Shown here: positions 3,400 to 64,000 of the stretch, piece after piece | How the letters are laid out: every line of letters starts with the position of its first letter | Position numbering within the stretch: the first letter of the stretch is position 1 | Assembly: GCA_964035575.1 (NCBI GenBank) | Contig: OZ037838.1 | Coordinates: 1-64,000, forward strand | From: Rhynchopus sp. YZ270_cl-10 | Lineage: Eukaryota | DNA length: 64,000 bases | Direction of reading: 5' to 3' | Notes under the pieces: generated by a model | Told to the model about the DNA's origin: nothing | What the model saw: only the letters and a program-made list of their open reading frames with translations | Database searches by the model: none | Program-made: the position numbers and the translations under genes

Positions 3400-3455
3400 A
3401 CACTATATATATTACCGGGTTTCAGGTCAAATGGATGGCAACGATCCCCACAAGA

Positions 3456-3623
3456 GCGGGTTTGCGGGTTTGCGGGTCTGCGGGTCTGCGGGTCTGCGGG
3501 TCTGCGGGTCTGCGGGTCTGCGGGTCTGCGGGTCTGCGGGTCTGCGGGTCTGCGGGTCTGCGGGTCTGCGGGTCTGCGGGTCTGCGGGTCTGCGGGTCTG
3601 CGGGTCTGCGGGTCTGCGGGTTT
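3456..3623 (+). repeat. (GCGGGTCT)n 8-bp variant array
   Basis: Directly visible T-to-C variant of the upstream 8-mer, following the 3400-3455 core. Confidence 0.95.
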
Positions 3624-3639
3624 GTGTGAGGGCCTTATA

Positions 3640-3990
3640 CAGCCAAAAATCCCTGTTTTTTCAATACAGGGATTTTTGGTCCGGATCTTGGCTTTTATGG
3701 ACAGAATGTAATTTATGGACAGATTTGTCGACATTTCTGTCCATAAATCCCAAAATGGCCAAAAATATTTTTTCAAATGGCTTAATGTAGTGGCTTCATC
3801 GGGGTGATTGTGTCGAAGTATGGTGGTCGTGGGACCAAAAATACGTAGTAGACATTAATTTACGTGGCCTACTGAGCTATGTGGGTACCCTTATGGGACC
3901 ACATACACGGAACTTCTATGTAAACTCATGGTACGTACGTGGTTCCGCCAGTACCCTTGTGCCTGTGTGATACACTACTGCAGCTCAGTA
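3640..3990. repeat. Dispersed double-hairpin module, copy 1
   Basis: Hairpin CCAAAAATCCCTGT..ACAGGGATTTTTGG (3643-3679) and hairpin ATTTATGGACAGA..TCTGTCCATAAAT (3711-3748). Homologous copies at about 8311, 24121, 24503 and 54505. Confidence 0.85.
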
Positions 3991-4310
3991 TGTACTAGGG
4001 CAGTGCTTCAGAATTCCTCACATTGTATGTTTGCATGTTGTAGTATGATGTTGGAAAGTAGAAGCTGATGCTGGAGTGTGGGTGTTGGCAAAAGAATATG
4101 GAAGGAAGGAATGAATAGATTTTAGACAAGTGGTAAAGCAAAATACGGGTGCATTGGGTTTGATTGACCTTTCTTTTTTTGTTTTTGTTGGAACATTTGT
4201 TTTCATATCTCTGTATTTGAAGAAAACATTGACATGACAGGCTAGATGTGTCTTGTCGTCCTTCCCCAGTCTCAGTTTTTGTATTTCCTCCCTATGGCCT
4301 AAAAAAAACC

Positions 4311-4856
4311 CTAGTTTCTTGACTTCATGGAGGATGACAGCCAGTCAAGTCCTTCATACAAACCTTCACCAGTTGCGGCGCAACTTCCCTGGATGTACCA
4401 CTCCCGGAGCCTTAGAGAGTGCAGCCCAAGTTTGTCAGTCATTTCAGCTGGGGTCATCGCCTTTGGAAGATCCTGTTTGTTTGCAAGCACAAGAAGTGTT
4501 GCATCACGGAGGGCATCATCTGTTGCCAGCTTGTGCAGCTCATCACGTGCAAGATAAATTCTTTCCCTGTCGTTGCTGTCAACAACAAATATAATGCCAT
4601 CAGTCCCCTCAAAGTAGTGGCGCCACAGCGGTCTCAGCTTGTCCTGGCCACCAATGTCCCACATGGTGAACTTGAGGTTCTTGTACTCCACTGTCTCCAC
4701 ATTGAACCCGATTGTCGGTATGGATGTGATCAAATCCCCTAACTTCAGCTTGTACAGCACAGTGGTCTTGCCAGAAGCATCGAGCCCCACCATCAGCATC
4801 TTCACATTCTTCTTCCCTGCAAAGAGCGTTGTCAGTGCAGAGGCAATGTTACCCAT
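4311..4856 (-). CDS. ARF: ADP-ribosylation factor (Arf family small GTPase), copy 1
   Basis: 181 aa. Gly2 myristoylation site, GLDASGKT (G1), [14 protein letters not shown] (G3), NKQD (G4), SCA (G5). Confidence 0.95.
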
Positions 4857-5149
4857 TGTGAAGGTTTATGTGTGAGTTTTGTGTTAATATCTGGGTGAAG
4901 TGGATGGAGTGGCGTTTGTGGGTTTGTGGGGTGGGTTTGGGGTCAGTTCAGTGAGGTGGGATTTGTAACACACCTCCCACCTAAGCCCAACCCACCACGG
5001 TGTGTACACCATAGTTGTACACAATCCCTACACCAACTAGCCAGCCAACCTCACTAGTGTCCCCTTCACTATTGTGTAAGAGTCCCGTTATCATCGGACG
5101 TGTTGTTTCCCAACATATAGACCATGTATACCGTGCAGAGTGTAGAGTG

Positions 5150-8100
5150 TGTACACTGTGTATACCTGCAACCCATGCCTTTTATGGTTGGTCAGTGGGT
5201 TAGTAGGAGTGCCGTCACCATAGGATCTGTGGGTCGGAACATATATTAGCAATATTTTGTACTGTGTATACTGTGTATACTGTATACACTGTACACACTG
5301 TTAACACTGTGTACACGGTGTATACTATGTATACCCGCAACCCTTGCCTTTTATGGTTGGTCAGTGGGTTAGCAGGAGTGCCGTCACCATAGGAATAATA
5401 ATCTTAACATATATTAGCAATATTTTGCCCTGTGTATACTGTGTGCACTGTATACACTGTGTACACTGTTTACACTGTGTACACTGTTTACACTGTGTAC
5501 ACTGTATACACTGTACACACTGTTAACATTGTGTACACTGTGTATACTGTGTATACCAGCAACCCTTGCCTTTTATGGTTGGTCAGTGGGTTAGTAGGAG
5601 TGCCGTCACCATAGGAATAATAATCTTAACATATATTAGCAATATTTTGTCCTGTGTATACCGTGTATACTGTATACACTGTGTACACTCTTTACACTGT
5701 GTACACTGTGTACACTGTGTACACTGTGTACACTGTGTACACTGTGTACACTGTGTATACTGTGTATACCAGCAACCCTTGCCTTTTATGGTTGGTCAGT
5801 GAGTTTGTAGGAGTGCCGTCACCATAGGAATAATAATCTTAACATATATTAGCAATATTTTGCCCTGTGTATACTGTGTACACTGTATACACTGTGTACA
5901 CCGTGTACACTGTGTACACACTGTTAACATTGTGTACACTGTGTATACTGTGTATACCAGCAACCCTTGCCTTTTATGGTTGGTCAGTGAGTTTGTAGGA
6001 GTGCCGTCACCATAGGAATAATAATCTTAACATATATTAGCAATATTTTGCCCTGTGTATACTGTGTACACTGTATACACTGTGTACACTGTGTACACAC
6101 TGTTTCCACCGTGTACACTGTGTACACTGTGTATACTGTGTATACCAGCAACCCTTGCCTTTTATGGTTGGTCAGTGGGTTAGCAGGAGTGCCGTCACCA
6201 TAGGAATAATAATCTTAACATATATTAGCAATATTTTGCCCTGTGTATACTGTGTACTCTGTATACACTGTGTACACTGTGTACACTGTTTACACCGTGT
6301 ACACTGTGTACACACTGTTAACATTGTGTACACTGTGTATACTGTGTATACCAGCAACCCTTGCCTTTTATGGTTGGTCAGTGGGTTTGTAGGAGTGCCG
6401 TCACCATAGGAATAATAATCTTAACATATATTAGCAATATTTTGCCCTGTGTATACTGTGTGCACTGTATACACTGTGTACACTGTATACACTGTGTACA
6501 CTGTTTACACTGTGTACACTGTACACACTGTTAACACTGTGTGTATACTGTGTATACCAGCAACCCTTGCCTTTTATGGTTGGTCAGTGGGTTTGTAGGA
6601 GTGCCGTCACCATAGGAATAATAATCTTAACATATATTAGCAATATTTTGCCCTGTGTTTTCTGTGTACACTGTATACACTGTGTACACTGTGTACACAC
6701 TGTTAACACTGTGTACACTGTGTATACTGTGTATACCAGCAACCCTTGCCTTTTATGGTTGGTCAGTGAGTTTGTAGGAGTGCCGTCACCATAGGAATAA
6801 TAATCTTAACATATATTAGCAATATTTTGCCCTGTGTTTTCTGTGTATACTGTATACACTGTGTACACTCTTTACACTGTGTACACTGTGTACACTGTGT
6901 ACACTGTGTACACTGTGTACACTGTGTACACTGTGTATACTGTGTATACCAGCAACCCTTGCCTTTTATGGTTGGTCAGTGAGTTTGTAGGAGTGCCGTC
7001 ACCATAGGAATAATAATCTTAACATATATTAGCAATATTTTGCCCTGTGTATACTGTGTACACTGTATACACTGTGTACACTGTGTACACACTGTTTCCA
7101 CCGTGTACACTGTGTATACTGTGTATACCAGCAACCCTTGCCTTTTATGGTTGGTCAGTGGGTTAGAAGGAGTGCCGTCACCATAGGAATAATAATCTTA
7201 ACATATATTAGCAATATTTTGCCCTGTGTATACTGTGTGCACTGTATACACTGTGTACACTGTTTACACTGTGTACACTGTGTACACTGTGTACACTGTA
7301 CACACTGTTAACCCTGTGTACACTGTGTATACTGTGAACACCAGCAACCCTTGCCTTTTATGGTGGGTCAGTGGGTTTGTAGGAGTGCCGTCACCATAGG
7401 AATAATAATCTTAACATATATTAGCAATATTTTGCCCTGTGTATACTGTGTACACTGTATACACTGTGTACACTGTGTACACTGTTTACACCGTGTACAC
7501 TGTGTACACACTGTTAACATTGTGTACACTGTGTATACTGTGTATACCAGCAACCCTTGCCTTTTATGGTTGGTCAGTGAGTTTGTAGGAGTGCCGTCAC
7601 CATAGGAATAATAATCTTAACATATATTAGCAATATTTTGCCCTGTGTATACTGTGTACACTGTATACACTGTGTACACTGTGTACACTGTTTACACCGT
7701 GTACACTGTGTACACACTGTTAACATTGTGTACACTGTGTATACTGTGTATACCAGCAACCCTTGCCTTTTATGGTTGGTCAGTGGGTTTGTAGGAGTGC
7801 CGTCACCATAGGAATAATAATCTTAACATATATTAGCAATATTTTGCCCTGTGTATACTGTGTGCACTGTATACACTGTGTACACTGTATACACTGTGTA
7901 CACTGTTTACACTGTGTACACTGTACACACTGTTAACACTGTGTGTATACTGTGTATACCAGCAACCCTTGCCTTTTATGGTTGGTCAGTGGGTTTGTAG
8001 GAGTGCCGTCACCATAGGAATAATAATCTTAACATATATTAGCAATATTTTGCCCTGTGTTTTCTGTGTACACTGTATACACTGTGTACACTGTTTACAC

Positions 8101-8300
8101 TGTGTACACTGTGTACACACTGTTAACACTGTGTACACTGTGTATACTGTGTATACCAGCAACCCTTGCCTTTTATGGTTGGTCAGTGAGTTTGTAGGAG
8201 TGTCGTCACCATAGGAATAATAATCTTAACATATATTAGCAATATTTTGTCCTGTATACTGTGTATACTGTGTACCCTATGTAGTGCTCTATGTACACTG
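5150..8300 (+). repeat. Composite minisatellite, about 16 units of ~180-225 bp
   Basis: A constant ~100-bp block (CAGCAACCCTTGCCTTTTATGGTTGGTCAGTG...AGCAATATTTTG) alternates with a variable-length (CTGTGTACA)n tract. Confidence 0.95.
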
Positions 8301-8310
8301 TGTGGAGCAA

Positions 8311-8665
8311 AGCCAAAAATCCCTGTATTTTCAATACAGGGAGTTTTGGCCAGGATCTTGGCTTTTATGGACAGAACGTAATTTATGGACAGATTTGTCA
8401 ACATTTCTGTCCATAAATCCCATGGCCAAAAATATTTTTTCAAATGGCTTACTGTAGTGGCTTCATCGGAGCAATTGAGGCGAAGTCTGGTGGTCGTGGG
8501 CCCAAAAATACATGGTAGACATCAGTTTACTTGGCCTACTGAGGTCTGTGGGTACCCTTACAGAGTCATACACAGGGAATTACTGTGTAAACTCATCGTA
8601 CGTGGGGTTCCCCAGAACCCTTGTGCACCAGTCCAACATGTGTGATACACTACTGCAGCTCAGTC
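8311..8665. repeat. Dispersed double-hairpin module, copy 2
   Basis: Same two hairpins (8312-8350 and about 8381-8418) and same downstream sequence as 3640-3990. Confidence 0.85.
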
Positions 8666-8984
8666 TGCGGTCAGAATTCCTCACCTTGTATATTTGCATG
8701 TTGTAGTATGATGTAGGAAAGTAGAAGCTGATGTTGGCGTGTGGGTGTTGGGCAAAATAATATGGAAGGAAGGAATGAATAAATTTTAGACAAGTGAAAA
8801 AGCAAAAATACGGGTGCATTGGGTTTGATTGAACTTTTTATTTTTGTTTTTGTTGGAGCATTTGTTTTCATATCTCTGTATTTAAAGAAAACATGACATA
8901 ACATGACATGACAGGCTAGATGTGTCTTGTCGTCCCTCCCCAGTCTCAGTTTTTGTATTTCCTCCCTATGGCTTTTAATATACC

Positions 8985-9530
8985 CTAGTTTCTTGACTTC
9001 ATGGAGGATGACAGCCAGTCAAGTCCTTCATACAAACCTTCACCAGTTGCAGCGCAACTTCCCTGGATGTACCACTCCCGGAGCCTTAGAGAGTGCAGCC
9101 CAAGTTTGTCAGTCATTTCAGCTGGGGTCATCGCCTTTGGAAGATCCTGTTTGTTTGCAAGCACAAGAAGTGTTGCATCACGGAGGGCATCATCTGTTGC
9201 CAGCTTGTGCAGCTCATCACGTGCAAGAGAAGTTCTGTCCCTGTCGTTGCTGTCAACAACAAATATAATGCCATCAGTCCCCTCAAAGTAGTGGCGCCAC
9301 AGCGGTCTCAGCTTGTCCTGGCCACCAACGTCCCACATGGTGAACTTGAGGTTCTTGTACTCCACTGTCTCCACATTGAACCCGATTGTCGGTATGGATG
9401 TGATCAAATCCCCTAACTTCAGCTTGTACAGAACAGTGGTCTTGCCAGAAGCATCGAGCCCCACCATCAGCATCTTCACATTCTTCTTCCCTGCAAAGAG
9501 CGTTGTCAGTGCAGAGGCAATGTTACCCAT
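8985..9530 (-). CDS. ARF: ADP-ribosylation factor (Arf family small GTPase), copy 2
   Basis: 181 aa with all G motifs intact (WDVGGQ). Differs from copy 1 at 3 residues. Confidence 0.95.
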
Positions 9531-9629
9531 GGTGAAAATATATGTGTCACTTTTGTGTTACTGTAGTAATATCTGGGTGGAGTGGGTGGAGTGAGCGGAG
9601 GGGGTTGGTATGGGCTCAGTTCAGTGAGG

Positions 9630-10085
9630 TTGGAGAGTTTGTAGGAGTGTCCTCATCATAGAACATATAGGCTATGACCATCACCGTGAAGACTGTGTAT
9701 AGTGTGTACACTGTGTAAACCTGCAACTAATGCCTCTTATGGTTGGTCAGTGAGTTTGTAGGAGTGCCGTCATCATAGAACATGTAGTTTGGAACATATA
9801 GGCTATGATCAGCACTGTGTATACTATGTATAGTGTGAAAAGTGTGTACACTGTGTACACTGTGTACACTGTGTATACCTGCAACTCATGCCTCTTATGG
9901 TTGGTCAGTGAGTTTGTAGGAGTGCCGTCATCATAGAACATGTAGTTTGGAACATATAGGCCATGATCAGTACTGTGTTTGCTGTGTATACAAGTATATA
10001 CAGTGTATGGTGTGTATACAGTGTATACTGTGTATACCTGATACTCATGCCTCTTATGGTTGGTAGGAGTGCCATCATAGAAAGT
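9630..10085 (+). repeat. Degenerate copies of the minisatellite unit between ARF and actin
   Basis: About 3-4 diverged TTATGGTTGGTCAGTGAGTTTGTAGGAGTGCCGTCA blocks with TGTGTACAC-like spacers. A homologous stretch lies at about 55830-56120. Confidence 0.75.
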
Positions 10086-10717
10086 GTTGTTTCCGATAAT
10101 CGATAGACTGCCGAAAATATTCTATAATAACATCAGTTTTCTTGTCTTTTGTGCCTGTTATATTATGCGCAAAGGTTTGTATAGAGAAGGTAGCAGAGGG
10201 TATTCTTAATGCTATGGAGGCTTGGAAAGAGGTAGATTAGTTTCTGTTATTGTTATGTATGTGTTGGACAGAGGTATTATTGTTTTCTGTGTGGTGTGTG
10301 TGTTGGGGTTTATGGGTGTTTCAAGCATAACAGGGAAAATAGTATGTTTCTTTTTTATTTTTTCTCTTTTTGGCTTTGTTTTTTGCTTTTGTTTCTGCTT
10401 TGGAGTTTTTTTTGTTCTTTTGTTTGCTGTCTTATTTTCTTTTGTATTCATGTCTCCTTTTATTATTTTGGTTTTATTTGCTTTTGTGTTAAAAATATAT
10501 TTGTTTTTTTGTTTGTATCATTTGTAATTTTTGCCGCATACGAATATACAGTACAATCAAATAAAAAAAATCCACACTACAGGCAAGTTCTCGCAATAAC
10601 CCTATCCCCGACACCCCGAAAGTTTGTATTTGTTTTTTTGTTTTGTCTTGATTTAAATGATTTTTCTTTTGCATTTTTTATTTTAAATTCTTTGTGTTCA
10701 TTTGTCGTTTTTTATGA

Positions 10718-11894
10718 CTAGAAGCACTTCTTATGAACAATCCCTGGGCCACTCTCATCATACTCCTCCTTCTTGACCCACATGGACGCAAAGGTGGAAA
10801 GGGAAGAGAGAATAGACCCTCCAATCCACACAGAGTACTTTCTCTCTGGTGGGGCAACAACCTTGATCTTCATGCTGTTTGGTGCCAGGTTTGTGACTTC
10901 CTTGGAAAGACGGTCTGCAAGCCCCTCGTACATGGTAGTTCCTCCTGAGAGAACAATGTTGGCGTACAAGTCCTTACGCACATCGATGTCACACTTCATG
11001 ATGGAGTTGTACACCGTCTCATGGATGCCATTTGCCTCAAGCCCAATGAACTGTGGCTTGAAGAGTGCCTCAGGGCAACGGAATCTCTCAGAGCCCACTG
11101 TGATCACCTGTCCATCGGGAAGCTCGTAGTCCTTTTCCAACGACGACGATGACGAGGCCAGGGACATCTCCTCGTCAAAGTCCTGGTGGTGGGTTTTTAG
11201 GTTTTCTTTTTCCTGTACAAAATATGCATACCAAGGCAACGTAGGCGAGTTTTTCTTTCACATCACGCACAATCTCGCGCTCTGCAGAGGTGACAAAGCT
11301 GTTACCACGTTCTGTCAGAAGCTTAATCATCCAGTCTGTCATGTCTCTTCCAGCCATGTCAATACGAAGCACGGCGTGTGGCAGAGAGTACCCCTCGTAG
11401 ATGGGAACTGTGTGGGTCACACCATCTCCTGAGTCAAGAACAATTCCTGTTGTGCGTCCAGACGAGTACAGGGACAGCACCGCCTGGATCCCAACGTACA
11501 TTGCAGGGCTGTTGAACGTCTCAAACATGATCTGTGTCATCTTTTCACGGTTGGCCTTTGGGTTCATGGGCGCTTCTGTGAGAAGCACAGGGTGATCCTC
11601 AGGTGCAACACGGAGCTCGTTGAAGAAGGTGTGGTGCCAGATCTTTTCCATATCATCCCAGTTTGTGATGATACCATGCTCAATCGGATACTTAATCAGC
11701 AGAATACCACGCTTGGACTGTGCATCGTCACCAATATAGGCTTCCTTCTTTGCTGTTCCCATCATTGCTGCAGCGGTCTTTGGCCTTCCAACAATGGACG
11801 GAAACACGGACCTCGGGGCATCGTCTCCTGCGAAACCTGCCTTCACCATCCCAGACCCATTGTCACAGACGATTGCTTGCTGGTCATCATCCAT
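10718..11894 (-). CDS. ACT: Actin, 375 aa, two exons: complement(join(10718..11182,11232..11894))
   Basis: [36 protein letters not shown] and C-terminal IVHKKCF. Removing a 49-nt GT..AG intron (11183-11231) joins AYVAL to DFDEEM. The exons total 663+465 nt, giving 375 aa plus stop. Confidence 0.96.
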
Positions 11895-12700
11895 GTTGAA
11901 GTTTGTACGTGTTTAAGGGTATGTGTTGTTCTGTGGTTTGAGTCTATGGGTATATACTTGTGGTGGGGGGGTTTGGCCGGGTGGTTTACGGTCAGGGCCA
12001 CAACCCACACACACACAGCAGGGACCTCCAAACCAGTGAGAAACCAGAAAACCAAAGAGAAAACACCATGCACCAAAAAAAAGGCAAAATCCTGGAATAT
12101 TTTCCGAATGCAAAAATTGAGCTTTTATGGACAGAACCAAATTTATGGACAGAATATCCGTAAAATCTGTCCATAAATTACAACCCCCCCGTGTGTTGTC
12201 TTAGGTGTTCCTGTGCTGAGAGGTGTGGAGACTTACAAATGAGAGGACTGGGGAGTGGAGAATTCTGAGGACATTGCCTCATGCCTTTTGGGTTTGCGTG
12301 GGTTTGTGGGTGAGTAACACCATGGGAGTGCCTAGGGAGCTGACCTTTCCCTAGAAGCCTAGAAACCGAGAGAGGTGTGTGAATGTATACTTCCCTTTGT
12401 ACACATGAAGTTGTGGTTCTCTGGTGAGCTGTGGTGTGATGTGTTGTTGTTTCTTGGCTGGGGGAAGGTAAAAAACTATGTCTAAGCAGAGGAAGTGGGG
12501 GAGATATCACTTTTTTTCTTTTTTCCTTCATTTTTGTGAAACAGTGCAAGCTCTTTATTTTTTTTTTCTCTCTTTGCATCCTTCTTTATTTGATTTCTTT
12601 CTTTTTTTTTTTTTCTTCTTTTTTTTATGTGAGGGTAGGTAGAGGGGTTCACATATGGGTGACTGGTCATCTGGGTTTGCGGAACTGGCGTAGTTACATA

Positions 12701-13930
12701 TTATTGGGAATAGTAGAATGGCACGGTGCTGTATGGATCATGTCGGTACACTGGCTGCTGTTGAGAAGTTGGCTTCATGTTGAACCCTATGTGCTGATTG
12801 AGAAAACGAGGTAGGCTGTGTTTCTGAGCTGTGCTACTTGTGCTAGGTTTTATATAGTTCTGACTGTCGTGGCAGAGAATTCTATCAGAAGAAGCCAGGC
12901 CAATACGCGTAGGCTGGTCGGGCCCTGCTGTCCACGCAAATGTTTTATCGTGTCTGGAGAGAAACCGCATGAGAAGAGAGTGGCTTGGGAATAGAGAGTT
13001 TGTGAACACTTCAAATCCATTCAACTTCTGCAACAGCTCCTTCTGGGACATGGGGCCTTCAGAGAGCATTCCTAGCAGGGCCTTTTTAAGATTTTCCTCA
13101 TCTTCACGTTGGACCTTGCTTCTCGACTTGTCTATTTCGCGCACTGAAGAGAGCGGTGTTCCAAAGAGGCAGACACGTGCATCAGACTTTTTTATCTGTG
13201 GAGCAAGACAATTTTCAACAATATCCTCATCAGAATAGTGGAACAGAGAGAAGTCCTCAGGATGGGCCCTGAGAAATTCCTGCCAGGCACCGTAGCATTT
13301 CCCCACAACGTTGTCGTAGAGTGGACTCTCCTTCGCTTTGTTGCTCAGCACAATAGACCCCAGAGAACCTCTGCACACATTCAGCCGTGGGTTTTCCAAA
13401 ATAGCTCTGACCTCTTTAACAAGTTGCCTCTCTGCGGACCCTTGCTTCACATTGTCAATTGGCATGTGTTGAACCTTCACTGTGAATGTAGTTGGGTGGT
13501 ATGCAATGTAGTGGCCAGAGTGTGATGCATCTTGAGATTGCACGAGGTTCCCAAGATCAACTTCAAAGTCCTCACGGCCTTCACAGGTACATTCCAGGGT
13601 TGCATTCCATGCACTCCCAGGAAGCGGATCATGAGTTGTGATAAAGAGAGCGTCAAGTCCAAGCCCGCCCTTTTCCCCAGTGATGTTTATGTCTTCATTA
13701 GCTGACACTGTGAGTGTTTCTTCTTTCCCTGGGAGCGGGAGGTTGCAACGTATAAGTTGTAAGCCATTCAGCAGAACTGATGCGTATCCTCGCTCCACTG
13801 GATTGGTGGGTCCTGCAATGTCAGTGATGTTGAAGCAACCGCTGGGTTCAAAGTCTGAGTCTGTGTTTCCTATGCTGCCTCCTGCTGTTGATATGACAGA
13901 ATACTGCCGAACAGAATCTACTGAGCTCAT
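12701..13930 (-). CDS. Uncharacterised 409-aa protein with C-terminal YRHDPY motif and two possible LOTUS/OST-HTH-like segments
   Basis: Long ORF kept open in the second cassette (410 aa, one in-frame codon insertion). GAWQEFLRAHPEDF and SLLMRFLSRHDKTF resemble winged-helix LOTUS ends (inference only). Confidence 0.75.
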   Translation of the reverse strand: MSSVDSVRQYSVISTAGGSIGNTDSDFEPSGCFNITDIAGPTNPVERGYASVLLNGLQLIRCNLPLPGKEETLTVSANEDINITGEKGGLGLDALFITTHDPLPGSAWNATLECTCEGREDFEVDLGNLVQSQDASHSGHYIAYHPTTFTVKVQHMPIDNVKQGSAERQLVKEVRAILENPRLNVCRGSLGSIVLSNKAKESPLYDNVVGKCYGAWQEFLRAHPEDFSLFHYSDEDIVENCLAPQIKKSDARVCLFGTPLSSVREIDKSRSKVQREDEENLKKALLGMLSEGPMSQKELLQKLNGFEVFTNSLFPSHSLLMRFLSRHDKTFAWTAGPDQPTRIGLASSDRILCHDSQNYIKPSTSSTAQKHSLPRFLNQHIGFNMKPTSQQQPVYRHDPYSTVPFYYSQ

Positions 13931-14116
13931 TGTTCTTGTGTTACAGTATATTTGTAGTGGCCTGTGATTTGTTGTTAGTCCGCTGAGTAAGACAAAAAAA
14001 ACTTAAAGAATACAAGAAAAACAGAGGGAGGGATAAGTAATAATTGGGATGGGTTGCAATATTTTTTTATTTGGGGTGTTCTTTATTTTTGTTTTCTTTG
14101 TATTGGTTTTTATTTA

Positions 14117-14788: not shown

Positions 14789-14994
14789 GTTGTGCAACAA
14801 AAATGTGTGTTAGGCTGTGTGGTGTTTGGGTATGGAAGATGAGGGGTGCCTGGGTGATTTACAAAACCAAGAGGGGAGTGTGAGGTAAAGGGAGATACAC
14901 TTTGCCAGTCTGTTCTGTGAGTGTGCTGTTTACCCCTGGACACACCCAATAATATTTCCACACAAATTAATATTATGTTCCAACTACTATTCCT

Positions 14995-15260
14995 AGATGC
15001 ACTCCTACTCACTGACTGACGAACTAAAAAAGGCATGAATTTGAGGTACACACAGTATACACAGTATACACAGTATACACAGTATACACAGTATACACAG
15101 TATACACAGTATACACAGTATACACAGTATACACAGTATACACAGTATACACAGTATACACAGTATACACAGTATACACAGTATACACAATATTGCTAAT
15201 ATATGTTCAGATTACTATTCCTATAGTGACGGCACTCCTACAAACTCACTGACCAATAGA
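14995..15260 (-). repeat. Inverted copy of the minisatellite unit with (CAGTATACA)n
   Basis: Reverse complement of the 5150-8300 unit (AATATTGCTAATATATGTT...GACGGCACTCCTACAAACTCACTGACCAA), lying in the divergent strand-switch region. Confidence 0.85.
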
Positions 15261-15540
15261 AAACACCGCAAAAACAGCAAAATTGACTACACAGGTTTAC
15301 GAGTTGACTGGTTAGTTGTATATGTATTGGTGTTTCCCTGCGGTGCGGGATGTGTGTAGGAGGGAATGCCACCTTACCGGTTTAACCAAATTTAATTTTA
15401 AGCATGAGATGGATGGAGATGAATTAGATTTTTGGTCTGTAGCCCAGGAGATACCATTTTTGTGGTAGTCCTACTTAATATATTTCTCTTATTCACTCCC
15501 TTCCCCCAGAAAATCCTACGACACAAACAAAAACAACAAC

Positions 15541-48582: not shown

Positions 48583-48590
48583 ATTACAAA

Positions 48591-49648: not shown

Positions 49649-49649
49649 C

Positions 49650-54500: not shown

Positions 54501-54504
54501 GCAA

Positions 54505-54855
54505 AGCCAAAAATCCCTGTATTTTCAATACAGGGATTTTTGGCCAGGATCCTGGCTTTTATGGACAGAACGTAATTTATGGACAGATTTGTCAACATTT
54601 CTGTCCATAAATCCCAAAATGGCCAAAAACATGTTTTCAAATGGCTTACTGTAGTGGCTTCATCGGAGCAATGGCGTCAAAGTATGGTGGTCGTGGGCCC
54701 AAAAATACATAGTAGACATCAATTTACTTGGCCTACTGAGGTCTGTGGGTACCCTTACAGGGTCATACACAGGGAATTACTGTGTAAACTCATAGTACGT
54801 GGGGTTCCCCCAGAACCCTTGTGCACCAGTCCAACATGTGTGATACACTACTGTA
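54505..54855. repeat. Dispersed double-hairpin module, copy 5
   Basis: Perfect 18-bp stem at 54506-54544 followed by the TTATGGACAGA hairpin. Confidence 0.85.
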
Positions 54856-55180
54856 TCTCAGTCTCTATTAAGCAGGGCGGTCAGAATTCCTCACCTTGTA
54901 TATTTGCATGTTGTAGTATGATGTTGGAAAGTAGAAGCTGATGTTGGCGTGTGGGTATGTTGGCAAAAGATTATGGAAGGAATAAAGATTTTAGACAAGT
55001 GATAAAGCAAAAATACGGGTGCATTGGGTTTGATTGAACATTCCTTTTTTGTTTTTGTTGGAGCATTTGTTTTCATATCTCTGTATTTGAAGAAAACATT
55101 GACATGACAGGCTAGATGTGTCTTGTCGTCCCTCCCCAGTCTCAGTTTTTGTATTTCCTCCCTATATCCTTTAAAAAACC

Positions 55181-55726
55181 CTAGTTTCTTGACTTCATGG
55201 AGGATGACAGCCAGTCAAGTCCTTCATACAAACCTTCACCAGTTGCAGCGCAACTTCCCTGGATGTACCACTCCCGGAGCCTTAGAGAGTGCAGCCCAAG
55301 TTTGTCAGTCATTTCAGCTGGGGTCATCGCCTTTGGAAGATCCTGTTTGTTTGCAAGCACAAGAAGTGTTGCATCACGGAGGGCATCATCTGTTGCCAGC
55401 TTGTGCAGCTCATCACGTGCAAGAGAAATTCTGTCCCTGTCGTTGCTGTCAACAACAAATATAATGCCATCAGTCCCCTCAAAGTAGTGGCGCCACAGCG
55501 GTCTCAGCTTGTCCTGGCCACCAACGTCCCACATAGTGAACTTGAGGTTCTTGTACTCCACTGTCTCCACATTGAACCCGATCGTCGGTATGGATGTGAT
55601 CAAATCCCCTAACTTCAGCTTGTACAGCACAGTGGTCTTGCCAGAAGCATCGAGCCCCACCATCAGCATCTTCACATTCTTCTTCCCTGCAAAGAGAGTT
55701 GTCAGTGCAGAGGTAATGTTACCCAT
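55181..55726 (-). CDS. ARF: ADP-ribosylation factor, copy 3
   Basis: 181 aa with all GTPase motifs intact. Differs from copy 2 at 2 residues. Confidence 0.95.
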
Positions 55727-56739
55727 GGTGAAAATATATGTGTCACTTTTGTGTTACTGTAGTAATATGTGGGTGGAGTGGGTGGAGTGAGCGGAGGGGG
55801 TTGGTATGGGCTCAGTTCAGTGAGGTTGGAGTTTGTAGGAGTGTCCTCATCATAGAACATATAGGCTATGACCATCACTGTGTATACTGTGTATACTGTG
55901 TACAGTGTGTAAACCTGCAACTAATGCCTCTTATGGTTGGTCAGTGATTTAGTAGGAGTGCCGTCACCATAGAACATGTAGTTTGGAACATATAGGCCAT
56001 GATCAGTACTGTGTTTGCTGTGTATACAAGTATACACAGTGTATGGTGTGTATACAGTGTATACTATGTATACCTGATACTCATGCCTCTTATGGTTGGT
56101 AGGAGTGCCATCATAGAAAGTGTTGTTTCCAACATATAGACTGCCGAAAATATTCTATAATAACCGTATAGGTTTTCTTGTCTTTTGTGCATGTTATATA
56201 TTATGCGCAAAGGTTTGTGAGAGAAGGTAGCAGAGGGTATTGATGAATGCTATGGAGGCTTGGAAAGAGGTAGATTAGTTTCTGTTATTGTTAGTATGTG
56301 TTGGACAGAGGTATTATTGTTTCTGTGTAGTGTGTGTTGGGGTTTATGGGTGTTTCAAGCTTAACAGGGAAAATAGTATGTTTCTTTTTTATTTTTTCAC
56401 TTTTTGGTTTTGTTTTTTGCTTTTGTTTCTGCTTTGGTGTTTTTTTTGTTTGCTGTCTTATTTTCTTTTGTATTCATGTCTCCTTTTATTATTTTGGTTT
56501 TATTTGTGTTAAAAATATATTAAATTTTGCTTTTTTGTTTGTATCATTTGTAATTTTTGCCGCATACGACGGAATATACAGTACAATCAAATAAAAAAAA
56601 TCCACACTACAGGCAAGTTCTCGCAATAACCCTATCCCCAACACCCCGAAAGTTTGTATTTGTTTTTTTTGTTTTGTCTTGATTTTTATTTTGCATTTTT
56701 TATTTTAATTTTTTTGTATTCATTTGTCGTTTTTTATGA

Positions 56740-57913
56740 CTAGAAGCACTTCTTATGAACAATCCCTGGGCCACTCTCATCATACTCCTCCTTCTTTACC
56801 CACATGGACGCAAAGGTGGAAAGGGAAGAGAGAATAGACCCTCCAATCCACACAGAGTACTTTCTCTCCGGTGGGGCAACAACCTTGATCTTCATGCTGT
56901 TTGGTGCCAGGTTTGTGACTTCCTTGGAAAGACGGTCTGCAAGCCCCTCGTACATGGTAGTTCCTCCTGAGAGAACAATGTTGGCGTACAAGTCCTTACG
57001 CACATCGATGTCACACTTCATGATGGAGTTGTACACCGTCTCATGGATGCCATTTGCCTCAAGCCCAATGAACTGTGGCTTGAAGAGTGCCTCAGGGCAA
57101 CGGAATCTCTCTGAGCCCACTGTGATCACCTGTCCATCGGGAAGCTCGTAGTCCTTTTCCAACGACGATGATGACGAGGCCAGGGACATCTCCTCGTCAA
57201 AGTCCTGGTGGGTTTTTGGGTTTTCTTTTTCCTGTAAAAAATATGCATACCAAGGCAACGTAGGCGAGCTTTTCTTTCACATCACGCACAATCTCGCGCT
57301 CTGCAGAGGTGACAAAGCTGTTACCACGTTCTGTCAGAAGCTTAATCATCCAGTCTGTCATGTCTCTTCCAGCCATGTCAATACGAAGCACGGCGTGTGG
57401 CAGAGAGTACCCCTCGTAGATGGGAACTGTGTGGGTCACACCATCTCCTGAGTCAAGAACAATTCCTGTTGTGCGTCCAGACGAGTACAGGGACAGCACC
57501 GCCTGGATCCCAACGTACATTGCAGGGCTGTTGAACGTCTCAAACATGATCTGTGTCATCTTTTCACGGTTGGCCTTTGGGTTCATGGGCGCTTCTGTGA
57601 GAAGCACAGGGTGATCCTCAGGTGCAACACGGAGCTCGTTGAAGAAGGTGTGGTGCCAGATCTTTTCCATGTCATCCCAGTTTGTGATGATACCATGCTC
57701 AATCGGATACTTGATCAGCAGAATACCACGCTTGGACTGTGCGTCGTCACCAATATAGGCTTCCTTCTTTGCCGTTCCCATCATTGCTGCAGCAGTCTTT
57801 GGCCTTCCAACAATGGACGGAAACACGGACCTCGGGGCATCGTCTCCTGCGAAACCTGCCTTCACCATCCCAGACCCATTGTCACAGACGATTGCTTGCT
57901 GGTCATCATCCAT
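56740..57913 (-). CDS. ACT: Actin, 375 aa: complement(join(56740..57204,57251..57913))
   Basis: 46-nt GT..AG intron at the same codon as in cassette A. The spliced protein is identical by eye to the cassette A copy. Confidence 0.96.
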
Positions 57914-58733
57914 GTTGAAGTTTGTACGTGTTTAAGGGTATGTGTTGTTCTGTGGTTTGAGTCTGTGGGTATATACTTGTGGTGGGGGGGTTTGGGGGGT
58001 GGGCCACGTAGGGTGGGTGGTTCACGGTCAGGGCCACAACCCACACACACACAGCAGGGACCTCCAAACCCAGCGAGAAACCAGAAAACCAAGAGAAAAC
58101 ACCATGTGCACCAAAAAAAAGGCAAAATCCTGGAAAATTTTCCGAATGCAAAAATTGAGCTTTTATGGACAGAACCAAATTTATGGACAGAATATCCGTA
58201 AAATCTGTCCATAAATTACAACCCCCCCGTGTGTTGTCTTAGGTGTTCCTGTGGTGAGAGGTGTGGAGACTTGCAAATGAGAGGACTGGGGGGGTCAGTG
58301 GAGGATTCTGAGGACATTGCCTCATGCCTTTTGGGTTTGCGTGGGTTTGTGGGTGAGTAACACCACGGGAGTGCCTAGAACCTTTCCCTAGAAGCCTAGA
58401 AACCGAGAGAGTGTGAATGTATACTGCCCTTGTACACATGAAGTTGTGGTTCTCTGGTGAGCTGTGGTGTGATGTGTTGTTGTTTCTTGGCTGGGGGAAG
58501 GTAAAAAACTATGTCTAAGCAGAGGGAGTGGGGGAGATATCACTTTTTTTCTTTTTTCCTTCATTTTTGTGAAACAGTGCAAGCTCTTTATTTCTTTTTT
58601 TCTCTCTTTGCATCCTTCTTTATTTGATTTCTTTCTTTTTTTTCTTCTTTTTTTTATGTGAGGGTAGGTAGGGAGAGGGGTTCACATATGGGTGACTGGT
58701 CATCTGGGTTTGCGGAACTGGTGTAGTTACATA

Positions 58734-59966
58734 TTATTGGGAATAGTAGAATGGCACGGTGCTGTATGGATCATGTCGGTACACTGGCTGCTGTTGAGAA
58801 GTTGGCTTCATGTTGAACCCTATGTGCTGATTAAGAAAACGAGGTAGGCTGTGCTTCTGAGATGTGCTACTTGTGCTAGGTTTTATATAGTTCTGACTTT
58901 CGTGGCAGAGAATTCTATCAGAAGAAGCCAGGCCAATACGCGTAGGCTGGTCGGGCCCTGCTGTCCACACAAATGTTTTATCGTGTCTGGAGAGAAACCG
59001 CATGAGAAGAGAGTGGCTTGGGAATAGAGAGTTTGTGAACACTTCAAATCCATTCAACTTCTGCAACAGCTCCTTCTGGGACATGGGGCCTTCAGAGAGC
59101 ATTCCTAGCAGGGCCTTTTTAAGATTTTCCTCATCTTCACGTTGGACTTTGCTTCTAGACTTGTCTATTTCGCGCACTGAAGAGAGCGGTGTTCCAAAGA
59201 GGCAGACACGTGCATCAGACTTTTTTATCTGTGGAGCAAGACAATTTTCAACAATATCCTCATCAGAATAGTGGAACAGAGAGAAGTCCTCAGGATGGGC
59301 CCTGAGAAATTCCTGCCAGGCACCACCGTAGCATTTCCCCACAACGTTGTCGTAGAGTGGACTCTCCTTCGCTTTGTTGCTCAGCACAATAGACCCCAGA
59401 GAACCTCTGCACACATTCAGCCGTGGGTTTTCCAAAATAGCTCTGACCTCTTTAACAAGTTGCCTCTCTGCGGACCCTTGCTTCACATTGTCAATTGGCA
59501 TGTGTTGAACCTTCACTGTGAATGTAGTTGGGTGGTATGCAATGTAGTGGCCAGAGTGTGATGCATCTTGAGATTGCACGAGGTTCCCAAGATCAACTTC
59601 AAAGTCCTCACGGCCTTCACAGGTACATTTCAGGGTTGCATTCCATGCACTCCCAGGAAGCGGATCATGAGTTGTGATAAAGAGAGCGTCAAGGCCAAGC
59701 CCGCCCTTTTCCCCAGTGATGTTTATGTCTTCATTAGCTGACACTGTGAGTGTTTCTTCTTTCCCTGGGAGCGGGAGGTTGCAACGTATAAGTTGTAAGC
59801 CATTCAGCAGAACTGATGCGTATCCTCGCTCCACTGGATTGGTGGGTCCTGTAATGTCAGTGATGTTGAAGCAACCGCTGGGTTCAAAGTCTGAGTCTGT
59901 GTTTCCTATGCTGCCTCCTGCTGTTGATATGACAGAATACTGCTGAACAGAATCTACTGAGCTCAT
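58734..59966 (-). CDS. Uncharacterised 410-aa protein with C-terminal YRHDPY motif
   Basis: Near-identical paralog of 12701..13930. Confidence 0.75.
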   Translation of the reverse strand: MSSVDSVQQYSVISTAGGSIGNTDSDFEPSGCFNITDITGPTNPVERGYASVLLNGLQLIRCNLPLPGKEETLTVSANEDINITGEKGGLGLDALFITTHDPLPGSAWNATLKCTCEGREDFEVDLGNLVQSQDASHSGHYIAYHPTTFTVKVQHMPIDNVKQGSAERQLVKEVRAILENPRLNVCRGSLGSIVLSNKAKESPLYDNVVGKCYGGAWQEFLRAHPEDFSLFHYSDEDIVENCLAPQIKKSDARVCLFGTPLSSVREIDKSRSKVQREDEENLKKALLGMLSEGPMSQKELLQKLNGFEVFTNSLFPSHSLLMRFLSRHDKTFVWTAGPDQPTRIGLASSDRILCHESQNYIKPSTSSTSQKHSLPRFLNQHIGFNMKPTSQQQPVYRHDPYSTVPFYYSQ

Positions 59967-60159
59967 TGTGTTCTTGTTGTGTTGACAGTATATTTGTAGT
60001 AGTGGCCTGTGATGTGTTAGTCCGTTGAGTAAGACAATAAAAACTTAAAGAATACAAGAAAAACAGATGGAGGGATAAGTAATAATTGGGATGGGTTGCA
60101 ATATTATTTAATTTGGAGTGTTCTTTATTTTTGTTTTCTTTTGTCTTGGTTTTTATTTA

Positions 60160-60825
60160 TTAAACCCAGTGTGCAGCAAACCTGTTCAGTGCCATGAAGG
60201 TTATTTCAGATGCTGAGGGAGATAGGGTATCAACACTAGATTTGCTGCTCGATGTGCATTCCTGCCAGGTGTCTGCATAGGATTCACTGCTGGAGCAAGT
60301 ACTGGAAGGGCAGAATGATGCAAGGTTCTCCAGGTCAAGTTCTCGGCATATATGGATGTTGATACAACGCTCCCCCCATTTGCATCTCTTCAATTTGTTC
60401 AGCCCACAAATCCTGTTCTTTTGTACAATAATCTTGTCCCCCCGGCGCAAAAGCTCCTCCAAACCTCTTGTACTGCTGAAATTGCTCACAGAGAGCAATG
60501 CTATATTGTCCTTTCCCTTCAACATGACGCATTTTTTGCTGACCCATTTTCCGGAATGAAGTGCGCAGCACTGGCCCGCCATTTCATCGCGAAGTCTGTC
60601 CACAGCATCTGGACTGACATGTAGTTGACGGCACGTCTTCTGTGACTTACATTTCCCTCTGTGAAATAGTATGCACACATTCAGTGGCCTATTTCCAAGG
60701 GTTCCTTGAAGATATGCTGTTCGTCCTTTCGTTTCACATGTTTCTGAAAAATGGAATGCAACAAGCTGGGCACAGTTTCCAGGGTCTCTTGCTTCTATCA
60801 CTTTGCCTTCTAATAGTGTGTTCAT
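60160..60825 (-). CDS. Tandem CCCH zinc-finger protein, 221 aa
   Basis: Paralog of 14117..14788. Both fingers are intact and all indels are in frame. Confidence 0.85.
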   Translation of the reverse strand: MNTLLEGKVIEARDPGNCAQLVAFHFSETCETKGRTAYLQGTLGNRPLNVCILFHRGKCKSQKTCRQLHVSPDAVDRLRDEMAGQCCALHSGKWVSKKCVMLKGKDNIALLSVSNFSSTRGLEELLRRGDKIIVQKNRICGLNKLKRCKWGERCINIHICRELDLENLASFCPSSTCSSSESYADTWQECTSSSKSSVDTLSPSASEITFMALNRFAAHWV

Positions 60826-61059
60826 GTTGTGTTCAAAAAATGTGTGTTAGGCTGTGGTGTTTGGGTATGGAGGATGAAGGGTGCCTGGGTGGTTTACAAA
60901 AACAAGAGGGGAGTGTGAGGTAAAAAGAGATACACTTTGCCAGTCTGTTCTGTGAGTGTGCTTACATACTTACTCTGCTGAGTGTTTACCCCTGGACACA
61001 CCCAATAATATTTCCATACAATAGCAAACCCGTAATAGTAAATATAATATTGCTAAAAA

Positions 61060-61420
61060 ACTACAGTATACACAGTATACACAGTATACACAGTATACAC
61101 AGTATACACAGTATACACAGTATACACAGTATACACAGTATACACAGTATATTCTGCAAACCCGCAAACTCAACAACAACAAAATATTGCTAATATATGT
61201 TCAGATTATTATTCCTATGGTGACGGCACTCCTACAGACTCACTGACCAACCATAAAAGGCATGGGTTGCAGGTATACACAGTATACACAGTATACACAG
61301 TATACACAGTATACACAGTATACACAGTATACACAGTATACACAGTATACACAATATTGCTAATATATGTTCAGATTACTATTCCTATGGTGACGGCACT
61401 CCTACAAACTCACTCACCAA
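61060..61420 (-). repeat. Inverted minisatellite units with (CAGTATACA)n
   Basis: Two reverse-oriented units in the strand-switch region, as at about 15000. Confidence 0.85.
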
Positions 61421-61702
61421 TAGAAAACACTGTAAAAACAGCAAAATTGACTACACAGGTTTACGAGTTGACTGGGTAGTTGTATATGTATTGGTGTTTC
61501 CCTGCGGTGTGGGATGTATGTAGGAGGGAATGCCACCTTACCCTTTAACCAAATTTAATTCAGGCATTAGATGGATGGAGATGAATTAGATTTGTGGTCT
61601 GTAGCCCAGGAGATACCATTTTTTTGGTAGGTCCTACTTAATATATTTCTCTTATTCATTCCCCTCCCCAGAAAATCCTACGACACAAACAAAAACAACA
61701 AC

Positions 61703-62525
61703 ATGGACCCCAAGAAACCGACACCGTGGAGTGATGATTTGCAGTCCACCAATCTCCTTGCGGAAGCCCCGATGCTCCTTCCTACTCCAACTGAAGAAGG
61801 GCCTAATTCACAGCCGGATGATGAGCTCCCGGATGACGTTATCAGAAACAATGTGCTTAATGAGCCGGTTGATGATAGTCTTGCGGGTCTGATCACGGAT
61901 CTACATATCCAGATGGAGAAAACTAAAGAAATGTGCAGGCAACTCACAGAAGCTCACAACATGATCCGTTCAGCCCACAGCTTCTACACATCACTGGTAT
62001 GTAATATTACAGTTATTACTTTTAAATTCTTCTTAACACAGCATGAACGTGCGATTGAACACATCGTTAACCACCAAAACAAGAGGAGGAGGGTTGATAC
62101 ACCAAAGGTATAATGACTATTTGGTTTTATTCAACTGATACAAATAATAATCACAGCGCAATTCGAGGATGTCTCAGGAGGCTATAACACCTGAGACCCC
62201 CACACTTGAGACGCCCACACTTGAGACCCCCACAACACCGGAGACCCCCCCAACTCGTACTCGTACTCCAGCGAGGAGAGGAGTATGGGTTTGTGAAACG
62301 TGCAAGAAGGTTTGCGAAACCTTATCTGCACTTAATAACCACGTCAAAGTGCACGAGGAAAAATCTCCAAAACCCAGGAGGAATTACAAGAAAAAAAGCC
62401 CCCTGGTGACCACCCCCCAGGTTACCACACCCCAGGTTACCACACCCCAGGTTACCGCACCCCAGGTCACCACCCCCATCCCACTTCCAGAAGATGATGA
62501 CGATGATGATGAAGAATATTTTTAG
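61703..62525 (+). CDS. C2H2 zinc-finger protein: join(61703..61996,62042..62107,62157..62525), 242 aa
   Basis: GT..AG introns of 45 and 49 nt at positions homologous to cassette A. Finger WVCETCKKVCETLSALNNHVKVH and acidic EEYF end. Confidence 0.8.
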
Positions 62526-62987
62526 GAATTTTTATCATTATTTTTTACAGTAAATTTTTTTAGTAGTTGTAGTATTTGACAAAATGATCCCCGTAAAAAA
62601 TAGTGCTTCTGCGCATTCCCCCGCTTTTTTTCCCCTACTCAATTTATATTTTATAAAAAAAAGTCCACACCCATGAGGCGAGCGTTTTGGCATACGCTTG
62701 TAAGGACAGCCTTAAAAAAAACTTTCATCTGAAACAGAAGCGGTGTGGAAGCAAACAACAAACAATCTTTACTTTTTCCCTCCCGTTTTATGACACCATA
62801 AAAGAGAAAGGTGTCGCTCGAGCATTGTCTTCTGTTTTTAATTTTTCCGTTTTATTTGTATATTTTTTCAGACACAAAATATCAGATACAATAAAAAAAT
62901 AGAAAAAAAAATTTTTTTCTATTTTTCTGAAATAACAAAGTACATTTTTATTTATCAGCAGAAGGAAGAATAACACACAAACAAACT

Positions 62988-63464
62988 ATGACGTTCAACC
63001 CAATGTGGTATGAGATTCAGTCTAATCTGCTAGAAGGGGAGACAGCTATTGACCGTCCGGATCTGGTGCACCGCATCTTCTACCTCAAGGTGAAGGAGCT
63101 TGTAAATTATATCAGAGAAAAAAATGTTCTTGGGGATCACATTGCAATGGTGGTGGTGATGGAGTACCAGAAGAGGGGTCTGCCTCATGCTCACGCAATT
63201 CTTTGGAAAGACAACAGAACATCACCGAAGAACCCTTTAAATGTGGATCACATTGTACAACTCCCGGGACCATTCGCACACCCAAACCTCTACAAAGCTT
63301 TCAGTCAGTATCTGATGAACGACAGGTGGGTGGTTCAATACAATCTTCTCCTGAAATATCGGCGCCACAGAAACAATGAGGAAGTGCGCGGGGTCCTTGT
63401 TGTTAAGTATTTGTTTAAATACTTATTCAAGGGGGAGCCTGTGACAGGTCTATTGATGCAATGA
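62988..63464 (+). CDS. Miniature Helitron-type HUH Rep protein, 158 aa
   Basis: MTFNPMW, DRPDLV, EYQKRGLPHAH and KYLFKYLFKG. The N terminus is shorter than in copy A, so motif 1 is partly lost. Confidence 0.75.
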   Translation: MTFNPMWYEIQSNLLEGETAIDRPDLVHRIFYLKVKELVNYIREKNVLGDHIAMVVVMEYQKRGLPHAHAILWKDNRTSPKNPLNVDHIVQLPGPFAHPNLYKAFSQYLMNDRWVVQYNLLLKYRRHRNNEEVRGVLVVKYLFKYLFKGEPVTGLLMQ

Positions 63465-63776
63465 TTTGTGTGATAGAGTTGTGAACATAAGGGATAAAAA
63501 AAGAAAACAAAATACAAAATAGCGATAAGTGGGGATATGTCTTTGTGGGCTTGCGGGTTTTCGGGTTTTTTTGTCTCAGTTACTTTTTGTTTGTTATTTA
63601 TTTGTTTTCCGAATTTTTCCTACTCTTCCAATATATTTGTATATTTTGTCAGACACAGAATATCAAATCACATAATACAACAACAAAAAAGGAATGTCCT
63701 ATTTTTCCAATAATTCTGAGAACATTTTTATCCATCATCAGTCATTACAAACAGAAAAACATAACACACCATAACT

Positions 63777-64000
63777 ATGTTGGAAGGGGGATATCAAGAT
63801 CTCTATGGTCATATGATAGATGGAGATTTGGATGACTGCGCCAGAGAGCCCCCATCGAATGGATGGTCTAGATACCTGTCGGACATGCGTGAATCTTTGC
63901 GTCTCTCGGCTGAAACATCACAAATGCAGTTAGAAGATATAAATTTTTTCTGCAGCCAGTACGAAAGCTCTGCACCACACACTCAATACGATGTCTGTGA
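63777..64000 (+). CDS. 5' part of a second Helitron Rep-helicase (open to the window end)
   Basis: ATG at 63777 gives MLEGGYQDLYGHMIDGDLDDCAREPPSNGWSRYL..., homologous to MFEGGYQNLYGHMIEEDFDDCAREPPSKDWSRYL at 17780. Confidence 0.88.
   Translation, partial: MLEGGYQDLYGHMIDGDLDDCAREPPSNGWSRYLSDMRESLRLSAETSQMQLEDINFFCSQYESSAPHTQYDVC

Follow-up and report, generated by a model that had tools for sequence, protein, structure and literature searches.

A window of 64,000 nucleotides, positions 1 to 64,000 of contig OZ037838.1 of Rhynchopus sp. YZ270_cl-10, contains two copies of a block in which genes for an ARF GTPase, actin, a protein designated ORF409 and a CCCH zinc-finger protein are joined to a C2H2 zinc-finger gene, a shortened Rep gene (mini-Rep) and the Rep-helicase (RepHel) of a Helitron, a rolling-circle transposon (Table 1). 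The first four genes are referred to here as the cargo. The twofold block with its identical gene order, which had been recognized in the original prediction, was confirmed by the listing of open reading frames (ORFs) and by masked self-BLASTN, as were the minus-strand ATG codons of actin at 11894 and 57913; the 46,019 bases between them are filled mostly by satellite. The two blocks are far more similar than expected by chance: In the coordinates of block A, masked self-BLASTN gave identities of 94.6% (8304-9682), 95.0% (10462-14965), 92.2% (15194-15965) and 87.4% (17023-17997), and an additional partial copy, A0, is about 90% identical to both 8311-9643 and 54505-55837. The hairpin modules said to surround the blocks are present as well, at 3631, 8304, 24113, 24492 and 54498. 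Three further statements of that prediction held in part. Every gene was said to be full length twice, which fails for RepHel, since only its first 224 bases in block B (63777-64000, plus strand) precede the end of the window. Introns, said to be kept by the genes, occur in actin (one, GT-AG) and C2H2 (two predicted, GT-AG), whereas the other five genes are single ORFs. Finally, the proposed size of more than 20 kb compares with about 16.4 kb between the outer modules, and about 21 kb is reached only if the extra ARF of A0 is counted. A search of the 64-kb window against Rfam gave no match.

Table 1. Features of the 64-kb window (aa, amino acids; CDS, coding sequence).
Feature	Position	Strand	Evidence or remarks
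8-bp microsatellite (TTTGCGGG)n, 3.4 kb, left of block A	1-3399	plus	TRF
Extra partial copy A0, hairpin module and ARF (CDS 4311-4856)	3631-4967	minus	
Satellite, units of ~170-210 bp	5149-8283	plus	TRF
Block A	8304-24740		ARF, actin, ORF409, CCCH (minus), then C2H2, mini-Rep, RepHel (plus)
Hairpin module, left edge of A	8304-8590	plus	18-bp stem-loop, then 12-bp motif twice direct, once inverted
ARF GTPase, 181 aa, intronless	8985-9530	minus	Pfam Arf, E 8e-73
Actin, exons 11232-11894 and 10718-11182	10718-11894	minus	Pfam Actin
Partial module upstream of actin, within the cargo	12121-12179	plus	12-bp repeats and one hairpin
ORF409	12701-13930	minus	Predicted beta-sandwich and two winged-helix domains, LOTUS-like
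CCCH zinc-finger protein, 223 aa	14117-14788	minus	Pfam Torus, E 0.007, weak
Inverted 170-bp satellite remnant	14991-15256	minus	Gene direction switches here
C2H2 zinc-finger gene	15541-16390	plus	Predicted introns 15829-15872, 15939-16000
mini-Rep, 180 aa	16921-17463	plus	HUH Rep with internal deletion; Helitron_like_N, E 9e-23
Helitron RepHel, 2015 aa, open	17780-23827	plus	HUH Rep and Pif1 helicase
Two tandem hairpin modules, right edge of A	24113-24740	plus	
38-bp segment common with 49040-49075, then (TTTGCGGG)n	24926-25265	plus	
Array of ~600-bp satellite, 20 kb	25266-45498	plus	
Non-coding hairpin-rich segment, 3.6 kb	45499-49075		Interrupts the 600-bp satellite
(TTTGCGGG)n run, G-rich repeat, 170-bp satellite, left of block B	49076-54497	plus	
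Block B	54498-64000		Starts with hairpin module; gene order as in A; ORF listing, self-BLASTN
ARF of B	55181-55726	minus	
Actin of B	56740-57913	minus	
ORF410 of B	58734-59966	minus	
CCCH of B	60160-60825	minus	
C2H2 of B	61703-62525	plus	
mini-Rep of B	62988-63464	plus	
Start of RepHel of B	63777-64000	plus	

The transposase of block A is that of a Helitron. RepHel matches the Pfam families Helitron_like_N (E 1e-31) and PIF1 (E 5e-49) as well as the solved Helraiser transposase 7lcc (E 7e-119), and it retains Rep motifs 2 and 3 and the Walker A motif. At least eight members of its cluster (8 of the 15 listed out of 29) are 2003-2017 amino acids long, and the three motifs are present in all seven that were checked. 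The residue between G and P in Rep motif 2 is L, as in 106 of the 119 best matches, and none of these has S at this position; L is the state of Helitrons and S that of Helentrons (PMC4067079; here and below, cited papers are represented by the passages of them that were available). Pfam detected no endonuclease domain in RepHel. The C-terminus shows weak similarity to an OTU domain (E 0.003, below the cut-off); a single-sequence model of this part reached a pLDDT of 45, and its BLASTP match to an OTU-bearing relative spans 24 residues only. The same contig set harbours three or more additional Helitron families whose long ORFs are open (P0217, P0218 and P0210/P0333, with 34, 5 and 2 cluster members). 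Together with RepHel, a 70-member family of another contig set and five more relatives, they form one branch of the tree (support 100/99) that stands apart from 14 other Helitrons. Outside this set, the RepHel alignment found no related locus among 17 candidates in viral contigs, and the 76 loci found in JGI metagenomes are all just 26-36% identical. Deubiquitinase domains are recurrent in the RepHel branch: P0213, a relative of 3125 amino acids with 36% identity to RepHel, has a ubiquitin C-terminal hydrolase domain (PF00443), and P0215 carries OTU.

The two smaller genes on the plus strand seem to belong to the Helitron side and not to the host cargo. In mini-Rep, an internal deletion of about 80 amino acids joins Rep motifs 2 and 3, both of which are kept. 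The protein is 72% identical to P0217 of another Helitron family as compared to 42% for the adjoining RepHel, and it clusters with P0217/P0218 in the tree (support 100/100). Thus, mini-Rep stems from a second Helitron family, and the block is a chimera of two. Among the matches listed, mini-Rep is open in eight distinct proteins on 15 contigs and falls into two subtypes; blocks A and B have different subtypes that are 83% identical. Mini-Rep could act as a stand-alone nickase or as a regulator of RepHel. For C2H2, exon 3 matches Pfam zf-met (E 3e-4). A 38-bp motif is found upstream of both mini-Rep (16789-16826) and RepHel (17629-17666; 87% alike) and is likely a shared promoter or trans-splicing signal; in run X3, there were short matches to the region of this motif in other contexts.

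The predicted model of the cargo protein ORF409 (pLDDT 71) consists of one beta-sandwich and two winged helices, and VIA-align comparisons with Egalitarian, TDRD5, TDRD7, Tejas and MARF1 gave Z scores of 8.4-9.1. Egalitarian or LOTUS domains occupy five of the six top VIA-align rows, with other winged helices close by (Z 8.2-8.6); Pfam WH_Egal was hit below the cut-off (E 0.022), and Foldseek returned no match for the model at E 0.001. ORF409 may thus be a LOTUS-like, RNA-binding protein, which we regard as a lead only. The same applies to the CCCH protein, whose top Atlas matches are euglenozoan C3H1 clusters (0.87-0.88). There are nine further clusters of ORF409 homologues, and those named to species, Sulcionema specki and Rhynchopus humris, are all diplonemid. 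The host is therefore a diplonemid, a marine protist, in agreement with the euglenozoan host that had been proposed. In JGI metagenomes, the ORF409 alignment found no related locus among 151 candidates. The GT-AG intron of actin measures 49 nt in block A and 46 nt in block B, and its length varies among copies. In P0078 it is in frame and without a stop codon on seven contigs, resulting in a read-through ORF of 395 amino acids.

Three lines of evidence bear on the number of copies. First, we made cluster look-ups at 90% identity; these name up to 15 members each, the contig counts thereby being lower bounds, and they tell contigs apart by size only, so that genes on the same contig need not be adjacent. 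The clusters comprise 12 members for ARF, 20 for ORF409, 17 for CCCH and 29 for RepHel, all from ENA, and the ORF of either actin exon is found on 20 contigs. Among the matches listed, ARF lies on 24 contigs, actin on 20 and mini-Rep on 15; the numbers are at least 21 for ORF409 (15 of 20 members listed), at least 19 for CCCH (15 of 17) and at least 18 for RepHel (15 of 29). Rather than being confined to one tandem locus, parts of the block are multi-copy on at least 28 distinct contigs, at least 11 of which exceed 1.2 Mb, which compares with chromosomes of 1.1-1.8 Mb in D. papillatum (PMC10161547). Diplonemid genome projects have also deposited second haplotypes (PMC13598402, PMC12171722); this may halve the number of loci, and would not cut it to one. 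Second, copies of the Rep-helicase share many contigs with the linked genes: Their copy numbers are similar, and cargo is also listed on 13 of the 17 contigs with RepHel or mini-Rep among the matches listed (nine of these 17 are larger than 1.1 Mb), as compared to 5 of 17 for other Helitron families (Fisher p 0.007). If only contigs over 1.1 Mb are considered, the values are 7 of 9 and 3 of 12 (p 0.024). For comparison, three other Helitron clusters from this contig set were used, whose listed members number 15 of 34, 5 of 5 and 2 of 2, respectively. Finally, the region 15200-24960 was matched in four public runs, each of which filled 25-30 of its 30 bins. For two of these runs, read depth was compared with that of a diverged RepHel relative: The family contigs reached 3227 where the relative had 60-108, and 2162 where it had 56. 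These are rough ratios of 30-54-fold and 38-fold in depth, not in copy number.

The comparison of blocks A and B reveals a mosaic. The coding DNA of the cargo differs by 0.9-2.4% and the spacers by 2.5-12.4%, whereas the Helitron-side genes differ by 7-8% (7.8% for the N-terminal part of RepHel) and exon 3 of C2H2 by 39%. Blocks with such differences on the Helitron side are not a fresh tandem pair, and the stronger divergence of the Helitron half relative to the cargo coding DNA points to recombination among copies. All ten changes in actin are silent (p 3e-7), as are 29 of the 43 changes in the four cargo genes taken together. For the RepHel ORF compared with other runs, 17 of 24 differences are silent (0.22 expected, p 4e-7), these 24 being the ones inside the ORF among the 40 differences shown of 457. 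As far as substitution patterns go, both the cargo and the transposase are thus shown to be under purifying selection.

The cargo resembles a slice of a host chromosome. On one 1.41-Mb contig of an assembly similar to Rhynchopus humris, an ORF409 orthologue occurs together with several ARFs (about 82%) as well as two ORFs of actin exon 2, whose intron position is identical to that of the window actin. ARFs and ORF409, with no listed actin, are found on a second Rhynchopus humris-like contig (2.0 Mb), and an ORF409 relative and one ARF on a 243-kb contig of another species. The ORF409 cluster in the Rhynchopus humris-like assembly has two ENA members and is hence not amplified. The presence of ARF, actin and unamplified ORF409 on one contig of a relative suggests that an old host linkage may have been copied as a block. 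In the tree, the cargo ARF falls together with Rhynchopus copies in an ARF1-like clade, from which the ARF1 rows of D. papillatum are separate. An origin from an endogenous giant virus was dropped, since the actin intron is of the host type and at the relative's position and no viral gene is present. A paralogue of ORF409 with 46% identity, P0066, forms a one-member cluster and lies on a contig of 993,258 bases that also has cassette-type ARF and CCCH; it is a candidate marker of the donor locus.

The surroundings of the blocks are rich in repeats. The five hairpin modules share about 250-290 bp that are 88-92% alike, including a stem-loop of 17-18 bp and a motif of 12 bp that occurs both directly and inverted; they have no common TC start, and their motif was found in no viral contig. 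Since the modules stand at both outer edges but also in tandem, they may be ends, junctions or satellite. Runs of (TTTGCGGG)n with the same polarity at 1-3399, 24964-25265 and 49076-49363 place a short repeat on both flanks of block A. Ahead of this repeat, block A and the 3.6-kb segment share the same final 38 bases, and both these bases and the hairpin modules are candidate ends of an element. By the rule of telomere strand polarity, we dropped the idea that 1-3399 is a true left telomere, as the plus strand is G-rich there; the literature passages covered mention no diplonemid telomere repeat. In the 600-bp satellite (34 intervals between anchors), all 29 units of regular size are identical except for the size of the microsatellite stretch; the unit has internal inverted repeats, and its variable part is the 8-bp microsatellite. 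Such identity indicates either very recent amplification, by rolling circle or unequal exchange, or smoothing of the consensus. The 3.6-kb segment probably consists of nested non-autonomous elements. It has hairpins at 45508-45540, 45980-46066, 46090-46174 and 48610-48714 and an inverted repeat (47721-47791/48539-48613).

On this basis, we modestly favour the idea that the block is a multi-copy, Helitron-built composite of about 16 kb which combines four intact host genes with RepHel and has been spread by rolling-circle transposition. In the mechanism that we envisage, a Helitron would have inserted beside or within a co-transcribed run of host genes, and this run would have become enclosed in one transposable unit, either because a second Helitron was nested with the first or because of read-through that began in an element located upstream. 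Both routes would account for cargo 5' of the transposase, and the mini-Rep of a second family fits nesting, which has been proposed for 5' capture in the Helitrons of Paramecium (PMC13085455). RepHel would then nick the unit, peel it off in its entirety and paste it, with satellite arrays or their immediate vicinity as the probable targets. Subsequent recombination between copies would mix the halves and duplicate the piece made up of module and ARF. Since it supplies working copies of the host's own genes, the cargo would be preserved. It is tempting to go further and to speculate that the working actin of this diplonemid, this ARF paralogue and the two predicted RNA-binding genes exist mainly or only as cargo of 20-50 Helitron copies, an autonomous element of 16-22 kb inserting into (TTTGCGGG)n arrays, which is hard to lose because of its essential genes and whose LOTUS-like and CCCH cargo possibly affects its own silencing; this extension is doubtful.

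Several observations weigh against transposition of the whole composite. The cargo is located 5' of RepHel, and simple 3' bypass does not yield such an arrangement, according to the relevant passages of the Paramecium study (PMC13085455). Both blocks run into satellite at both ends. A strict scan for a GC-rich hairpin followed by CTRR found no site in the five unique regions; with relaxed settings, three sites appeared, all within 45499-49075, and neither the modules nor the sequence following the RepHel stop codon had one. These scans covered unique regions, and an end inside or beyond the satellites lies outside their scope. In the four public runs, the 24 loose-end rows shown of 218 revealed no boundary within 15200-24960, but additional satellite, additional copies of the module repeats and short matches belonging to other contexts. 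Of the autonomous rolling-circle element that had been postulated, the intact and selected RepHel is thus borne out, whereas canonical termini and a sharp boundary were not found in these scans. Moreover, co-divergence of RepHel with the cargo was not significant in Mantel tests (ORF409, p 0.31, n=6; CCCH, p 0.13, n=4) and negative for ARF (n=6); the sole significant test linked ORF409 and CCCH (p 0.011, n=7). Two sister contig pairs (1518833/748199 and 1361800/501316) that agree across genes were not counted as co-transposition, since each agreeing pair consists of one large and one smaller contig and may represent two haplotypes. Cargo is not listed on 4 of the 17 Helitron contigs, and for the others the shared contig, known by size alone, is not the same as adjacency. 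Finally, a donor ARF with 75-96% identity from the same contig set was absent from the 120 best matches, so that the donor locus is either one of the near-identical copies, concealed by introns, or lost.

Some of these points would be expected for a dispersed segmental duplication in the style of subtelomeric blocks. Here, a Helitron would once have inserted next to the run of ARF, actin, ORF409 and CCCH, and ectopic recombination or break-induced replication between flanking satellites would then have copied the entire stretch between chromosomes, with the transposase as a passenger. The lack of Helitron termini in the scanned regions and the non-significant co-divergence belong here, and both blocks start after the same piece of (TTTGCGGG)n and 600-bp satellite and carry the 170-bp satellite. 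The mosaic divergence of A and B and the tandem module-ARF duplicate indicate recombination, and in D. papillatum gene clusters are located between extended repeat regions (PMC10161547). On the other hand, decay would be expected of a transposase that is a passenger, whereas RepHel is full length in 8 of 15 listed members and under purifying selection; the RepHel count matches that of the cargo, neither exceeding it nor lagging behind, and mini-Rep and C2H2 are open in both copies of the window. We consider this explanation the main rival of the transposed composite, though less likely than it. Even if it were correct, a genome with about 20 dispersed blocks of actin and ARF, all of them linked to an intact transposase, would have an unusual architecture.

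The identical junction, order and spacing in A and B, despite their different mini-Rep subtypes, are difficult to reconcile with two independent units, i. e. a self-mobile Helitron of about 9.5 kb (C2H2, mini-Rep, RepHel and the 3' modules) and a separately amplified host block bounded by the inverted 170-bp satellite, which share satellite-rich targets and recombine there. In addition, the block as a whole has the module at either outer edge, the cargo spacers are as diverged as the Helitron half, and other Helitron families share contigs with cargo far more rarely. The switch of gene direction at the inverted satellite remnant fits two units, as do the difference of 7-8% between A and B in the coding DNA of the Helitron half against about 1% in the cargo, the Helitron contigs without listed cargo, and P0210, an 84% sister of RepHel on a contig without listed cargo; overall, this possibility is improbable. 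That the many contigs stem from just one or two tandem loci, multiplied by different assemblies, haplotypes or wrong joins and not by dispersal in one genome, is very improbable, although the second haplotypes in deposited diplonemid data, the perfectly homogeneous 600-bp array and the record of the window RepHel solely on a contig of 41,984 bases, indicating a differently joined assembly in the collection, point in this direction, since the large contigs differ in size, most members occur on a single contig, the P0066 paralogue on one such contig is a one-member, one-contig cluster, two haplotypes merely halve the count, and the excess depth recurs in two independent runs.

If the composite is indeed transposed as a unit, a eukaryotic rolling-circle element would resemble a bacterial cargo element in moving four intact, selected genes, and the dose of core genes including actin and the ARF GTPase would be raised tens of times. 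Helitrons are known for carrying gene fragments. Whole-gene capture by them has been termed exceptionally rare (PMC6431247), and a Helitron with intact actin or ARF was not found in the literature, as judged mostly from listings and abstracts. For diplonemids, the D. papillatum genome paper has a one-line mention of Helitrons, and its supplement files lack the word 'helitron' (the main additional PDF may hold more); our analysis thus gives a first view of Helitron structure in diplonemids.

Among known systems, the canonical Helitrons (HLE1), such as Helraiser, the cargo Helitrons of maize and HELPO1 of Pleurotus, are alike in their RepHel with HUH Rep and Pif1 helicase and in carrying host DNA with its introns; they reach 14 kb in fungi and 39 kb in maize (PMC6431247). 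The block differs from them by its upstream cargo, by the mini-Rep kept from a second family and by TC and hairpin-CTRR ends that were not found in our scans; since the 3' hairpin-CTRR test failed in the scanned regions, we do not file it as canonical HLE1, whose elements also begin with TC and insert between A and T. The OTU-like domain is C-terminal here, whereas HELIANO reports OTU upstream of RepHel (PMC11417382). The Helitrons at Paramecium chromosome ends share with the block a long ORF under purifying selection, many satellites, a short repeat of the same polarity on both flanks and a genome of many small chromosomes; as described in the passages available, they differ in having no host genes, a known insertion into telomeric repeats and defined ends (PMC13085455). 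The HLE2 elements (Helentron, Helitron2) and HINE/DINE-1 have direct and inverted short repeats beside a stem-loop and are associated with tandem repeats, as is the block. HLE2 elements are distinguished by S in Rep motif 2, by an endonuclease in the case of Helentrons, and by short inverted repeats at the termini with a stem-loop at the end and T|T insertion. RepHel has L at this position and no Pfam endonuclease domain, so that the block is not filed as HLE2 either, and the module repeats are candidate termini. Yeast Y' elements are subtelomeric segmental duplications with a helicase gene. Like the block, duplications of this type place copies of a helicase gene on multiple chromosomes between short-repeat tracts and become mosaic by recombination; the block differs from them in that it combines a complete Helitron transposase including the Rep nickase with core genes of its host.

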